Shown here: piece after piece, positions 2,718-7,658 of the stretch | Layout of the letters: every line of letters starts with the position of its first letter | How positions within the stretch are numbered: position 1 is the first letter of the stretch | From: Escherichia coli | Lineage (GTDB): Bacteria > Pseudomonadota > Gammaproteobacteria > Enterobacterales > Enterobacteriaceae | Assembly (NCBI RefSeq): GCF_003334355.1 | Contig: NZ_QOWP01000014.1 | DNA: 64,000 nt | Strand: one strand, 5' to 3' | Notes under the pieces: model-generated | Databases searched by the model: none | What the model saw: only the letters and a program-made list of their open reading frames with translations | What the model was told of the DNA's origin: nothing | Program-made: the position numbers and the translations under genes

Positions 2718-3338
2718 ATGAGGTATATAGTTGCCTTAACGGGAGGCATTGGCAGTGGCAAGAGTACCGTTGCCAATGCGTTTGCTGATCTCGGAATTAA
2801 CGTCATTGATGCCGATATTATTGCGCGTCAGGTGGTTGAACCAGGTGCACCTGCGCTACATGCCATTGCTGATCACTTTGGCGCTAACATGATTGCTGCT
2901 GATGGAACATTGCAGCGCCGGGCCTTGCGCGAGCGGATCTTCGCCAACCCGGAAGAGAAAAACTGGCTTAACGCCCTGCTGCATCCGCTGATTCAGCAAG
3001 AGACGCAACACCAGATCCAGCAAGCTACTTCCCCCTATGTACTGTGGGTTGTGCCATTGCTGGTAGAAAACTCACTGTATAAAAAAGCGAATCGAGTGCT
3101 GGTGGTGGATGTCAGCCCAGAAACGCAACTTAAGCGCACCATGCAGCGCGATGATGTAACTCGCGAGCATGTCGAACAAATCCTTGCTGCTCAGGCAACG
3201 CGCGAAGCCCGCCTTGCCGTGGCAGATGACGTCATTGATAATAACGGCGCACCGGATGCTATCGCATCGGATGTTGCCCGCCTGCACGCACACTATTTGC
3301 AGCTTGCGTCGCAGTTTGTCTCACAGGAAAAACCGTAA
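2718..3338 (+). CDS. coaE: Dephospho-CoA kinase
   Basis: 206-aa ORF; N-terminal P-loop [11 protein letters not shown]; stop overlaps zapD start (TAATG). Confidence 0.96.
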
Positions 3339-4081
3339 TGCAGACCCAGGTCCTTTTTGAACATCCACTAAATGAAAAAATGCGTACATGGCTGCGCATT
3401 GAGTTTTTGATTCAGCAACTCACCGTTAATTTACCCATCGTTGACCACGCTGGCGCGCTGCATTTCTTCCATAATGTCAGTGAATTACTGGATGTTTTCG
3501 AGCGCGGCGAAGTCCGCACTGAGCTGTTGAAAGAACTTGACCGGCAGCAACGTAAACTCCAGACCTGGATTGGCGTGCCTGGCGTGGACCAGAGCCGTAT
3601 TGAAGCATTAATTCAGCAGTTAAAAGCGGCGGGGAGCGTATTAATTTCCGCGCCGCGTATCGGGCAATTTCTGCGTGAAGATCGTTTGATTGCTCTGGTG
3701 CGTCAGCGACTGAGCATCCCAGGCGGCTGTTGCAGCTTTGATTTACCTACATTGCACATTTGGCTGCATCTACCCCAGGCGCAGCGCGACAGCCAGGTAG
3801 AAACCTGGATTGCCAGCCTGAACCCGCTCACCCAGGCACTTACCATGGTGCTGGATTTAATTCGCCAGTCGGCCCCCTTCCGTAAACAAACCAGCCTGAA
3901 TGGTTTTTATCAGGATAACGGTGGCGATGCCGACTTGCTGCGCCTGAATCTGTCGCTCGATTCACAGCTTTATCCGCAAATTTCCGGACATAAGAGCCGT
4001 TTTGCCATTCGTTTTATGCCGCTGGACACTGAAAACGGACAGGTACCGGAACGTCTGGATTTCGAACTGGCCTGTTGCTAA
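3338..4081 (+). CDS. zapD: Cell division factor ZapD (YacF)
   Basis: 247-aa ORF; position between coaE and yacG; length matches ZapD. Confidence 0.93.
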
Positions 4082-4090
4082 GGAGTAAAA

Positions 4091-4288
4091 ATGTCAGAAA
4101 CTATTACGGTGAATTGCCCAACCTGCGGGAAAACGGTGGTGTGGGGTGAAATCAGCCCGTTTCGGCCATTTTGCTCCAAACGTTGTCAGCTGATCGACCT
4201 CGGAGAATGGGCTGCTGAAGAAAAACGAATCCCCAGCAGTGGCGATCTTTCCGAAAGCGATGACTGGAGCGAAGAGCCAAAGCAGTGA
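4091..4288 (+). CDS. yacG: DNA gyrase inhibitor YacG (zinc-finger protein)
   Basis: 65-aa ORF with CPTCGK...CSKRC zinc-ribbon cysteines; RBS ggag 9 nt after zapD stop. Confidence 0.93.
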
Positions 4289-4295
4289 CATTTGT

Positions 4296-4512
4296 CTGAT
4301 GCCGCACGTAGGCCTGATAAGACGCGGGCAGCGTCGCATCAGGCATCTTGTGCAAATGTCGGATGCGGCGTGAACGCCTTATCTGACCTACAAAAACAAA
4401 TTTATCAATGAGTTATAAATCCCTGTAGGCCTGATAAGACGCGCCAGCGTCGCATCAGGCATCGTGTGCGAATGTCAGATGCGGCGAAAACGCCTTATCT
4501 GACATACACACG
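4296..4512. repeat. REP/BIME cluster (two REP-pair units) between convergent yacG and mutT
   Basis: Two copies of the motif ggcctgataagacgcg..cagcgtcgcatcaggc and two copies of gatgcggcg..aacgccttatctgac in inverted arrangement; classic enterobacterial REP palindromes. Confidence 0.9.
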
Positions 4513-4893
4513 CTTAAGCTTCGCAATTACCTGTTCATTGGCTGGCGGAAACTCATCGGCATTAAGACCGACCAGCGACATCCACTCACCGGGTTGCCCT
4601 TCTTTACCCCACGGCTCCCCTTCCCAGCGTTCGACCAGCCAAAACCACAGTGTTATATGCCTGTCCGGGAATTCATATTCCAGTTTTTCAAATAGCGAAA
4701 AATGTTGGGGGGTAATCCCGACTTCTTCCTGAAGTTCACGCACCACCGCCTGTTCCGGCGTTTCACCCATTTCAATTTTACCGCCGGGAAACTCCAGTTT
4801 ATTCGCCATGTGCGCATCTGCTGCGCGACGCGTTATAAAGATTTCATTGTTCTCGTTGCGAATAATACCTACCGCAATTTGCAGCTTTTTCAT
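4495..4893 (-). CDS. mutT: 8-oxo-dGTP diphosphatase (Nudix hydrolase) MutT
   Basis: 132-aa ORF; Nudix box GGKIEMGETPEQAVVRELQEEVGI; stop codon lies inside the distal REP unit. Confidence 0.95.
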   Translation of the reverse strand: MKKLQIAVGIIRNENNEIFITRRAADAHMANKLEFPGGKIEMGETPEQAVVRELQEEVGITPQHFSLFEKLEYEFPDRHITLWFWLVERWEGEPWGKEGQPGEWMSLVGLNADEFPPANEQVIAKLKRVYVR

Positions 4894-4904
4894 TGTCTTA
4901 AACC

Positions 4905-4935
4905 TATAAAAAAGGCGCAGAATCCTGCGCCTTTT
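4905..4935 (-). terminator. Hairpin with flanking A/T tracts between secA stop and mutT start (attenuator/terminator-like)
   Basis: ggcgcag-aatc-ctgcgcc stem-loop flanked by A-run on one side and T-run on the other; sits in the 59-bp secA-mutT spacer. Confidence 0.5.
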
Positions 4936-4952
4936 ACTTTAACAGTTAGCTT

Positions 4953-7658
4953 TTATTGCAGGCGGCCATGGCACTGCTTGTATTTTTTACCAGAACCGCA
5001 CGGGCAAGGATCGTTACGTCCTACTTTGCGCTCTCCAGTTTGCGCCGCCAGTGCAGCTGCGGCTGCAGAGTCGTCATCCTGATGGCTAAGCTGCTGCATT
5101 TGCGCTAAACGCTCGGCTTCCATACGACGCTGTTGTTCCAGCTCCTCAACCTCTTCAGGCATACGTACCTGGACTTTGCTCAACGTGCTGATAACTTCAT
5201 ATTTTAACGACTCCAGCATCGCTGCAAACATGGAGAACGATTCACGTTTGTATTCCTGCTTCGGATCTTTCTGTGCGTAGCCACGCAGGTGGATACCCTG
5301 ACGCAGATAGTCCATCGCTGCCAGGTGCTCTTTCCACAGGGAGTCAAGCGTTTGCAGCATGACGCCTTTCTCGAAGTGACGCATCATCTCAGCACCAACC
5401 ACTTCTTCTTTACGCTGATACACTTCGATGGACTGCGCCAGAATTCGCTCACGCAGCGTCTCTTCATGCAGTTCTGGTTCTTTATCCAGCCACTCGGCAA
5501 TTGGCAAATCGAGGTCGAAATCGTTCTTCAGACGTTCCTGCAGCCCCGGAATATCCCACATTTCTTCCAGCGACTGTGGTGGAATGTAGGCATCAATGGT
5601 CGCTTTGAACACATCTTCACGAATGCTGTTAATGGTTTCGCTCACATCGCTGACATCCAACAGTTCGTTACGCTGGGAGTAAATGGCGCGACGCTGATCG
5701 TTAGCCACGTCATCATATTCCAGCAGTTGCTTACGAATGTCGAAGTTACGGCTTTCAACTTTACGCTGGGCGTTGGCAATCGCTTTAGTCACCCACGGGT
5801 GTTCAATGGCTTCGCCTGGCTTCATACCCAGTTTACGCATCATGCCGGATACTCGGTCGGAAGCAAAAATACGCATCAGCGCATCTTCCATCGACAGGTA
5901 GAAACGGGAAGAACCAGCATCCCCCTGACGACCAGAACGACCGCGCAACTGGTTATCGATACGACGGGATTCGTGACGCTCGGTACCGATGATATGCAGG
6001 CCACCTGCTTCCAGTACCGCATCGTGACGTACCTGCCAGTCGGCTTTAATTTTTTCAATTTGCTCTGCGGTCGGATTTTCCAGCGCGGCAACTTCTGCCT
6101 GCCAGCTACCACCGAGCACAATATCTGTACCACGACCCGCCATATTGGTCGCGATAGTCACCGCAGCCGGATAACCTGCCTGAGCAACAATCGCCGCTTC
6201 GTTGGCGTGGAATTTGGCGTTCAGGACGTTGTGCTTAATACCGGCTTTGGTCAGTTCGTTTGACACCAGCTCCGATTTTTCGATGGAGATAGTACCCACC
6301 AGCACCGGCTGGCCTTTCGCAGTACGTTCTTTGATATCTTCAATGATCGCCTGAATTTTTTCCGCTTCAGTCATGTAGACCAGGTCCGGCAGATCTTTAC
6401 GAATCATTGGACGGTTGGTCGGAACAACGACGGTATCCAGCTTGTAGATTGAGCTAAATTCGAAAGCTTCGGTATCAGCAGTACCGGTCATCCCCGCCAG
6501 TTTTTCATACAGACGGAAGTAGTTCTGGAAGGTGATCGAAGCCAGCGTTTGGTTTTCGTTCTGGATCTGCACACCTTCTTTCGCTTCCACAGCCTGGTGC
6601 AGACCATCGGACCAGCGACGGCCCTGCATGGTACGACCGGTGTGTTCGTCAACGATGATAACTTCACCATCTTTAACGATGTAGTCGACGTCACGGGTAA
6701 ACAGCGCATGAGCGCGCAGCGCCGCCGTTACGTGGTGCATCAGCATGATGTTGGCCGGAGAGTACAGAGACTCCCCTTCATCCATGATGCCCTCTTTCAC
6801 CAGCAGTTCTTCAATCAGCACCAGACCACGTTCGGTCAGGTTCACCTGGCGAGATTTTTCGTCCACCGAGAAGTGGCCTTCGCCCTGGAAGGTTTCGGAG
6901 TCTTCTTTTTCCTGACGGATCAGGTGCGGAATAATTTTATTCACGCGTTTATACATTTCCGAGCTGTCTTCTGCCGGGCCGGAAATGATCAGCGGTGTAC
7001 GCGCTTCATCGATCAGGATGGAGTCCACTTCGTCCACCAGCGCATAGTGCAGTTTACGCTGTACACGTTCTTCAGGGCTGAACGCCATGTTGTCGCGCAG
7101 GTAGTCAAAGCCGTATTCGTTGTTCGTACCGTAAGTGATGTCAGCTGCGTAAGCTTCGCGCTTTGCCGGTGCTGGCATGCCCGGCAGGTTGATACCGACA
7201 GTCAGGCCAAGGAATTCAAACAGCGGACGGTTGTTTTCGGCGTCACGTTGCGCCAGGTAGTCGTTGACGGTAACTACGTGCACGCCTTTACCGGTTAGTG
7301 CGTTCAGGTAAGCAGGCAGCGTTGCGGTCAGGGTTTTACCTTCACCGGTACGCATTTCGGCGATGCAGCGTTCGTTAAGAACCATACCGCCGAGTAACTG
7401 AACGTCGAAGTGACGCATACCAAAGACGCGCTTACTTGCCTCACGTACCACGGCGAAAGCTTCCGGGATCAGATTTTCCAGCACTTCGCCTTTTTCCAGA
7501 CGTGCACGAAACTCTGCGGTTTTCCCTTTCAGTTCTTCGTCGGAGAGTTTTTCCATCTCCGGTTCCATGGCATTGATGATGTTGACCACTTTGCGCATCC
7601 GGCGCAGGGTGCGATCGTTACGACTACCGAAAACTTTAGTTAATAATTTGATTAGCAT
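4953..7658 (-). CDS. secA: Preprotein translocase ATPase SecA
   Basis: 901-aa ORF; DEAD-like motor motifs and C-terminal zinc-binding tail [14 protein letters not shown]. Confidence 0.98.

Follow-up and report, generated by a model that had tools for sequence, protein, structure and literature searches.

The mutT gene in the window (the whole stretch of 64,000 nt of E. coli DNA analysed here) encodes a protein of 132 amino acids, and very probably represents a common natural allele of E. coli that arose by loss of a stop codon, the reading frame being extended into a REP element that was already present. The preliminary description of this locus had placed the TAA of mutT at 4495–4497 inside a REP, and had set the 132 aa against a length of 129 aa for the K-12 protein. 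Both statements were borne out: the position by the ORF, the sequence and an Rfam match (RF02564, 4428–4504), the length by K-12 mutT (b0099; 111044..111433, 390 nt, 129 aa) and by the PDB chains of E. coli MutT, which have 129 aa and end with ...KLKRL. The features of the locus are listed by window position, with strand and type of evidence.

4091..4288, plus strand: yacG, convergent neighbour beyond the BIMEs (ORF list, RefSeq locus)
4308..4391, no strand assigned: second BIME copy (Rfam match 4311–4388)
4425..4460, plus strand: Z2-type REP, inverted, GTAG at 4425–4428, forming BIME copy 1 together with the proximal Y REP (sequence, fold, Rfam)
4463..4512, minus strand: predicted extended hairpin at the 3′ end of the mutT mRNA (fold)
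4474..4507, minus strand: mutT-proximal Y-type REP (fold, Rfam, REP consensus)
4495..4893, minus strand: mutT CDS, 132-aa allele, 8-oxo-dGTP diphosphatase (ORF list, NCBIfam, PDB alignment, RefSeq)
4495..4497, minus strand: stop codon used, TAA, the T-A-A of the REP motif GATAAGG (sequence, fold)
4498..4503, minus strand: codons 131–132, GTC AGA (Val-Arg), the first six bases of the REP 5′ stem arm (GTCAGA) (sequence, fold, Rfam)
4504..4506, minus strand: codon 130, TAT (Tyr), the GTAG head of the REP being mutated to GTAT (alignments)
4507..4509, minus strand: codon 129, GTG (Val), which is CTG (Leu) in 129-aa alleles (alignments)
4531..4533, minus strand: codon 121 with P121Q (alignment)
4552..4554, minus strand: codon 114 with D114E (alignment)

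The gene order across 3338–7658 is zapD (+), yacG (+), a spacer of 206 bp, mutT (−) and secA (−), and is the same as that found at 108–113 kb in K-12. The window protein scored 244.2 bits with the NCBIfam model NF008044 (cut-off 148), which identifies it as a MutT equivalog, and 230.1 bits with TIGR00586 (cut-off 97.9). The Nudix box Gx5Ex7REUxEExGU can be read from the translation as G38-KIEMG-E44-TPEQAVV-R52-E53-L-Q-E56-E57-V-G59-I. In the alignment, residues 1–113 are identical to those of the crystallised K-12 protein (PDB 1mut, 129 aa). The window protein differs from K-12 MutT by D114E, P121Q, L129V and the added residues YVR, its C-terminus being ...PPANEQVIAKLKRVYVR (...KLKRVYVR). Exactly the same CDS is present in RefSeq (WP_000736008.1, strain 214-4, 399 nt). 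From the intact core and the presence of this form in 1,882 genomes, we infer that the 132-aa protein retains its activity.

P121Q and D114E are absent from the other 19 aligned Escherichia loci, and neither occurs in the 132-aa MutT proteins that we sampled from RefSeq. Across the Enterobacteriaceae species loci, position 121 is occupied by Pro in 77 of 79 and by Ser in the remaining two; Q121 and the VYVR tail occur together in 35 genomes. Asn119, which lies two residues from this position, presumably contacts the 8-oxoguanine base. Judged from the sequence, P121Q and D114E may have a mild effect on MutT activity. On the other side of the gene, the Rfam family STnc40 (RF02057; gathering score 45) gave a match at 4908–4977 (minus strand, 84.7 bits, E=6e-16). 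It covers the secA stop (4953) as well as the spacer between secA and mutT, and takes in the hairpin aaaaggcgcagaatcctgcgcctttt just 5′ of the mutT start.

The yacG-mutT spacer of the window contains two BIMEs. As a BIME model we used Rfam RF02564 (naRNA4; gathering score 59.5), which effectively describes a Y-REP/Z2-REP pair. It matched at 4428–4504 (minus strand, 78.7 bits, E=4e-14) and at 4311–4388 (minus strand, 71.4 bits). Folding and sequence revealed the traits of REPs and BIMEs, namely an imperfect palindrome, an internal AA mismatch bulge, many copies and REPs in alternating orientation; a query of 401 nt from this region matched at 72,457 places across 5,426 E. coli genomes, with a median of 13 per genome. 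The proximal Y REP consists of the head GTAT (4507–4504), the 5′ arm (4503–4491), the loop (4490–4487) and the 3′ arm (4486–4474). The second BIME copy, which is missing from many E. coli lineages, is composed of a Z2-type REP at 4308–4344 (plus strand, GTAG at 4308–4311) and a Y-type REP with its GTAG at 4391–4388 (minus strand). The E. coli REP consensus is GTAGGacgGATAAGgCGttCACGcCGCATCcGGCA and opens with GTAG (GTAGGacgGATAAGgCG...; PMC2817692). This foot is GTAT in the proximal Y REP and is retained as GTAG by the other three REPs in 4308–4460. Because these three and the K-12 site have GTAG, we consider the proximal element to be a degenerate REP copy and not a different element.

The spacer varies between strains. 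Two BIMEs are found in the window, K-12, O145, FEX669 and GPEC1165, the linker between them being different in the latter two strains, and a single BIME is found in O157, 042, NU14 and the B1 STEC. Half of another REP arm (gtctgatgccgcac) is located at 4296–4307 of the window. In FORC_028 the element IS621 (IS110 family) is inserted in the Z2 REP of the mutT-proximal BIME (NZ_CP012693.1, 4724122–4725146); the alignment with other strains breaks directly after GCGTCTTATCAGGCCT. This insertion leaves both the Y REP and the mutT stop intact. Two further hits of the 401-nt query have the same IS621 insertion in the mutT-proximal BIME. IS621 targets REPs.

At the 3′ end of mutT, the junction reads ...AAA CGT CTG TAG GTC AGA TAA GGC... 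in K-12 and ...AAG CGT GTG TAT GTC AGA TAA GGC... in the window. The alignment of the two is gap-free over the junction, with substitutions only, and the REP is located at the same nucleotide. The substitutions that define the allele are C to G (Leu129 to Val) and G to T (TAG to TAT). After loss of the stop the frame continues for three more codons until it meets the TAA within the GATAAGG of the REP, which results in 132 aa; on the plus strand this stop appears as the reverse complement tta (4495–4497) within acgccttatctgac (4490–4503). Since the RF02564 match starts at 4504, the last base of codon 130, codons 131–132 and the stop are inside the element, and the view that the last codons of this gene derive from a REP is confirmed. 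The stop of K-12 is already REP sequence as well, because the REP consensus begins with GTAG and supplies the TAG. In the crystal structure of TnpA_REP with its REP, A12 and A13 form a mismatched bulge of the stem (PMC3479197), and the two A's of the TAA used in the window correspond to this bulge. Each of the alternative stops thus comes from one of the two best-conserved features of the REP: the TAG from GTAG, the TAA from the bulge.

Nucleotides 1–341 of the window mutT are the same as in K-12, followed by six differing sites in 76 nt and by more differences through the BIMEs. This distribution makes recombination plausible, and the sequence suggests a recombination junction inside the window mutT. 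The 3′ end of the gene in the window is a mix of features of an O145-type and a K-12-type haplotype.

To describe the alleles within E. coli, 22 loci (K-12 and 21 others) were fetched over the identity range of the hits and aligned or translated. The mutT-proximal REP was found at the identical position in all 22. CTG TAG, resulting in 129 aa, is present in K-12, F2_81, CUVET19, NCCP13717, 500010, the B1-type STEC O121:H19, O111:H8 and FORC_028. GTG TAT or GTG TAC, resulting in 132 aa, is present in O157:H7, O145:H28, 042, NU14, A16, GF3-3, FEX669, GPEC1165, NQ3, MS20677, PE144, 214-4 and the window; the locus of strain 214-4 is identical to that of the window, and GTG TAC was seen once among the 22 loci, all other 132-aa loci having GTG TAT. 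In the aligned loci the change from CTG to GTG at codon 129 always accompanies the loss of the stop, and the CDS lengths annotated by PGAP (390 or 399 nt) match the allele. The 132-aa alleles end with the TAA (or TAG) found in the GATAAGG motif of the REP. Elsewhere in E. coli codons 131–132 are GTC GGA, GCC GGA or GTC GAA, so that the tail is VYVG, VYAG or VYVE in place of the VYVR of the window. The two residues encoded by the REP thus vary with the REP stem (VG, AG, VE, VR), a variability that speaks against constraint on the tail.

For counting alleles we used nine disjoint 36-nt megablast queries, for which the central 20 bases must match exactly (28-nt word). They replaced a single 90-nt query, which reached only 567 genomes because of the 28-nt exact word. 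The nine queries classified 5,116 of 5,426 complete E. coli genomes, leaving 310 unclassified. Alleles without a stop at codon 130 comprised VYVG (647 genomes), VYAG (355), VYVE (582), the window tail VYVR (64, O145:H28 included), a version with CGC GTG TAC (164) and an AGG CGT variant (KLRRVYVE, 70). The 132-aa class thus amounts to at least 1,882 of the 5,426 genomes (34.7%), including O157:H7, 042 and NU14. The 129-aa class with CTG TAG, in three variants (1,787, 1,370 and 77), adds up to 3,234 genomes (59.6%). The exact 90-nt haplotype of the window was present in 35 complete genomes. Three exact matches to the mutT 3′ end were on plasmid-labelled records, of which the K-12-type query gave one and the B1-type query two; the replicons are probably mislabelled or chimeric, or else plasmids carry these chromosomal segments.

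A scan of GTDB species genomes yielded 80 mutT loci, each of which was translated to its stop. The scan returned no locus named as E. fergusonii, E. marmotae or the E. coli type genome, and five other, non-coli Escherichia lineages served as the outgroup. Codon 129 and the stop are ATG TAG in E. albertii, CTG TAG in Escherichia sp. E1V33 and in 'E. coli' SCPM-O-B-8794, CTT TAA in E. whittamii and TTT TAA in Escherichia sp. MOD1-EC7003. The SCPM-O-B-8794 locus is 88% identical, and on this basis the strain is evidently another species-level lineage. In all five the protein has 129 aa and the stop at codon 130 is directly followed by GTCGGATAAGG or a variant differing in one to two bases; codon 130 reads TAG or TAA in K-12 as in each of the other sampled Escherichia lineages. 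Since all five outgroups stop at codon 130 beside the REP, both the REP and the 129-aa end go back to the ancestor of the genus, and the 132-aa form results from a later loss of the stop. In the older sense that the K-12 stop is the TAG of GTAG, the 3′ end of mutT is set by the REP throughout the genus.

Beyond Escherichia, the MutT core is conserved to about ...PPANEPVIxKL, after which length (129–135 aa) and sequence vary freely; past about residue 126 the tail is hypervariable in 79 Enterobacteriaceae species. In 17 of the 79 species loci a GTAG provides the TAG that serves as stop, and another 11 have a GTAG within 15 nt downstream of the mutT stop. TAG serves as stop in 24 of the 79 loci and is preceded by G in 17 of these 24, the species being related and the counts not independent. 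GTAG-type stops were seen in Enterobacter spp. (8 loci), Leclercia, Citrobacter (4 loci) and Klebsiella michiganensis. Among the loci that we read, a REP-like palindrome follows the GTAG stop in Enterobacter, Leclercia, several Citrobacter and Escherichia; in Enterobacter and Leclercia the GTAG heads a genus-specific palindrome, e.g., CCG TAG GCCTGCTAAGCGAAGCGCCAGCAGGC. One locus of C. amalonaticus (CAG GCC GGA TAA GGC) runs into the REP stem exactly as the window does. No REP was found at the mutT end of Salmonella (131 aa) among the species loci translated to the stop. Even with this reservation on the counts, the general idea that REPs shape the mutT 3′ end holds at the family level, and this part of the preliminary description stands. 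A Salmonella-like MutT with the tail ...RKLRQFAP and 79% identity to the query was also found on QXHL01000193.1 (424 nt, 0.83x coverage), assigned to Alicyclobacillaceae bacterium I2511; it is almost certainly a contamination in a Firmicutes assembly.

The preliminary description had raised acquisition of a REP as a possible cause of the altered end of mutT. According to this explanation, a REP would have arrived at the mutT 3′ end in the lineage of the window, by new acquisition or by a move, and would have replaced the last codons and the stop. The location of these codons within REP sequence would fit, as would the polymorphic spacer with its one or two BIMEs and, in one strain, IS621. But the same proximal REP occupies the identical position in K-12, in every further E. 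coli locus examined and in the remaining Escherichia lineages sampled, the junction with K-12 is gap-free, and two point substitutions explain the length. The K-12 alignment, the E. coli loci and the outgroups rule out a lineage-specific REP insertion as the cause of the difference between 129 and 132 aa, and we regard this explanation as very improbable. The expectation that the stop position co-varies with REP presence failed likewise: the proximal REP is always present, all four combinations of BIME number and stop occur, and since one or two BIMEs occur with either allele, the position of the stop does not co-vary with REP content. The probability that the window stop reflects a sequencing or assembly error is negligible, the identical 90 nt being present in 35 independent complete genomes and the class in 1,882, by which an artefact is refuted. 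The direction of the change is less settled. The lineages with TAT include NU14, 042 and O157:H7, which we take to belong to phylogroups B2, D and E, respectively; K-12, O121:H19 and O111:H8, with TAG, would be in A and B1. The TAT-bearing lineages include early-branching groups of E. coli and A/B1 carry TAG, so a single origin of TAT needs recombination or an ancestral polymorphism. The same distribution could mean that the ancestor of E. coli had GTG TAT and that A/B1 later got CTG TAG back, either through recombination with other Escherichia or out of a retained polymorphism; a donor exists, since the cryptic-clade E1V33 and SCPM-O-B-8794 carry exactly CTG TAG. Against this, TAG or TAA is ancestral at the genus level either way, as all five outgroups stop at codon 130, and the mosaic mutT of the window indicates that recombination scrambles the locus. 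We consider this reversed polarity rather unlikely.

It was also considered that the two substitutions were selected for an effect on RNA or DNA, with the three extra residues as a by-product. Both bases form pairs in a predicted hairpin, in which CGUGUGU and AU (4512–4504) pair with AU (4473–4472) and GCACACG (4469–4463) around the REP stem-loop. An energy of −30.6 kcal/mol (z = −7.9) was predicted for the window, compared to −17.0 kcal/mol (z = −2.3) for K-12, and swapping the two bases alone made the predicted hairpin 6.5–8.7 kcal/mol stronger in all three backgrounds (window, K-12 and O157/B1). In the B2 alleles the 3′ partner is CATAT instead of CACAC, and pairing is kept via G-U. At the DNA level, GTAG is needed for binding and cleavage by TnpA_REP, cleavage occurring at a CT, and each of four single-base changes of GTAG tested in vitro abolished cleavage and detectable binding; GTAT could not be confirmed to be among the four (PMC3479197). 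The intact GTAG guide for TnpA_REP (RAYT) is lacking at the proximal REP, and since the G-to-T change destroys it, this copy is probably inert. With regard to translation, REPs less than 16 nt from a stop codon down-regulate translation by stalled ribosomes, according to PMC12306157, which cites Liang et al. 2015. Several points speak against selection, however. The chance that both substitutions would pair is roughly estimated as 0.1–0.2, and the predicted energies of natural alleles overlap between the classes (−10 to −21.7 kcal/mol for 129 aa, −16.2 to −30.7 kcal/mol for 132 aa). The stop is less than 16 nt from the REP in both alleles, lying inside the 5′ arm in the window and directly before that arm in K-12, so the substitution moves mutT neither into nor out of the stalling class; other CT dinucleotides also remain upstream. 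An adaptive origin is therefore improbable in our view. The window has only three Y REPs in all, too few to judge whether complementarity of the coding end with the BIME linker is general in BIMEs; of the two others, one (43746, minus strand) also has flanking complementarity and one lacks it.

Loss of the stop into a pre-existing REP would have proceeded as follows. A BIME of a Y-type and an inverted Z2-type REP would have adjoined the mutT 3′ end before the Escherichia species diverged, with the GTAG of the ancestral REP supplying the stop of a 129-aa protein (...CGT CTG TAG|GTCGGATAAGG...). Within E. coli, two linked substitutions would then have converted CTG TAG to GTG TAT. Past the lost stop, the frame takes up six bases of the REP stem, encoding Val or Ala and then Gly, Arg or Glu depending on the local REP, before it reaches the in-frame TAA or TAG; the window has the VYVR version on an otherwise K-12-like mutT. 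The three extra residues would be an unconstrained appendage of the C-terminal helix, with the activity of the enzyme kept. By loss of GTAG the proximal REP would probably have become inert for TnpA_REP, and a stronger mRNA hairpin is predicted at the stop.

Public annotation already contains the mutT gene, its BIME and the 132-aa protein; the window has an ordinary allelic variant of a known arrangement. Like K-12 mutT (b0099), it has the neighbours secA-mutT-BIME-yacG-zapD, two BIMEs at the same positions and a stop taken from the REP; unlike K-12, it has GTG TAT, a stop three codons later in the REP stem, and D114E and P121Q. In GTG TAT, length and stop position it resembles the 132-aa RefSeq proteins of O157:H7 (WP_000736023.1), O145:H28 (WP_000736002.1), 042 (WP_000736038.1) and NU14 (WP_000736050.1). 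O145:H28 MutT shares the VYVR tail, whereas the others end with VYVG, VYAG or VYVE by polymorphism of the REP stem and mostly have a single BIME. The stop-proximal regulatory REPs of Liang, Rudd and Deutscher (2015), as described in PMC12306157, are similar in that a REP lies within 16 nt of the stop, the distance from the mutT stop to the REP being zero or negative. The likeness is one of distance, and the window stop differs from theirs by lying inside the stem and not upstream of it. Di Nocera et al. 2013 (PMC3733652) noted REPs of several families that adjoin coding regions or overlap them. Most of these are whole REPs or dimers, encoding 20–30 residues; in the window only 10 nt of REP are coding, and they became so by substitution in a stop codon and not by insertion. 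Our literature search found no paper describing the 129/132 stop-loss polymorphism of mutT.

If the change from CTG TAG to GTG TAT were not neutral and altered MutT synthesis, B2/D/E and A/B1 would differ heritably in 8-oxo-dGTP sanitation and in the rate of A:T-to-C:G mutation. The route would be that the last five mutT codons and the stop are buried in a hairpin stronger by the predicted 6.5–8.7 kcal/mol, with recognition by TnpA_REP disabled; we think this quite improbable. By itself the extended end of MutT matters little. It is a neat case of conserved REP bases serving as stop codons (TAG in GTAG, TAA in GATAAGG), in which one base change can shift the C-terminus into repeat sequence without visible harm. 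For annotation, MutT proteins of 129 and of 132 aa are both genuine. The polymorphism also provides a natural pair of alleles for testing REP-dependent translational control.
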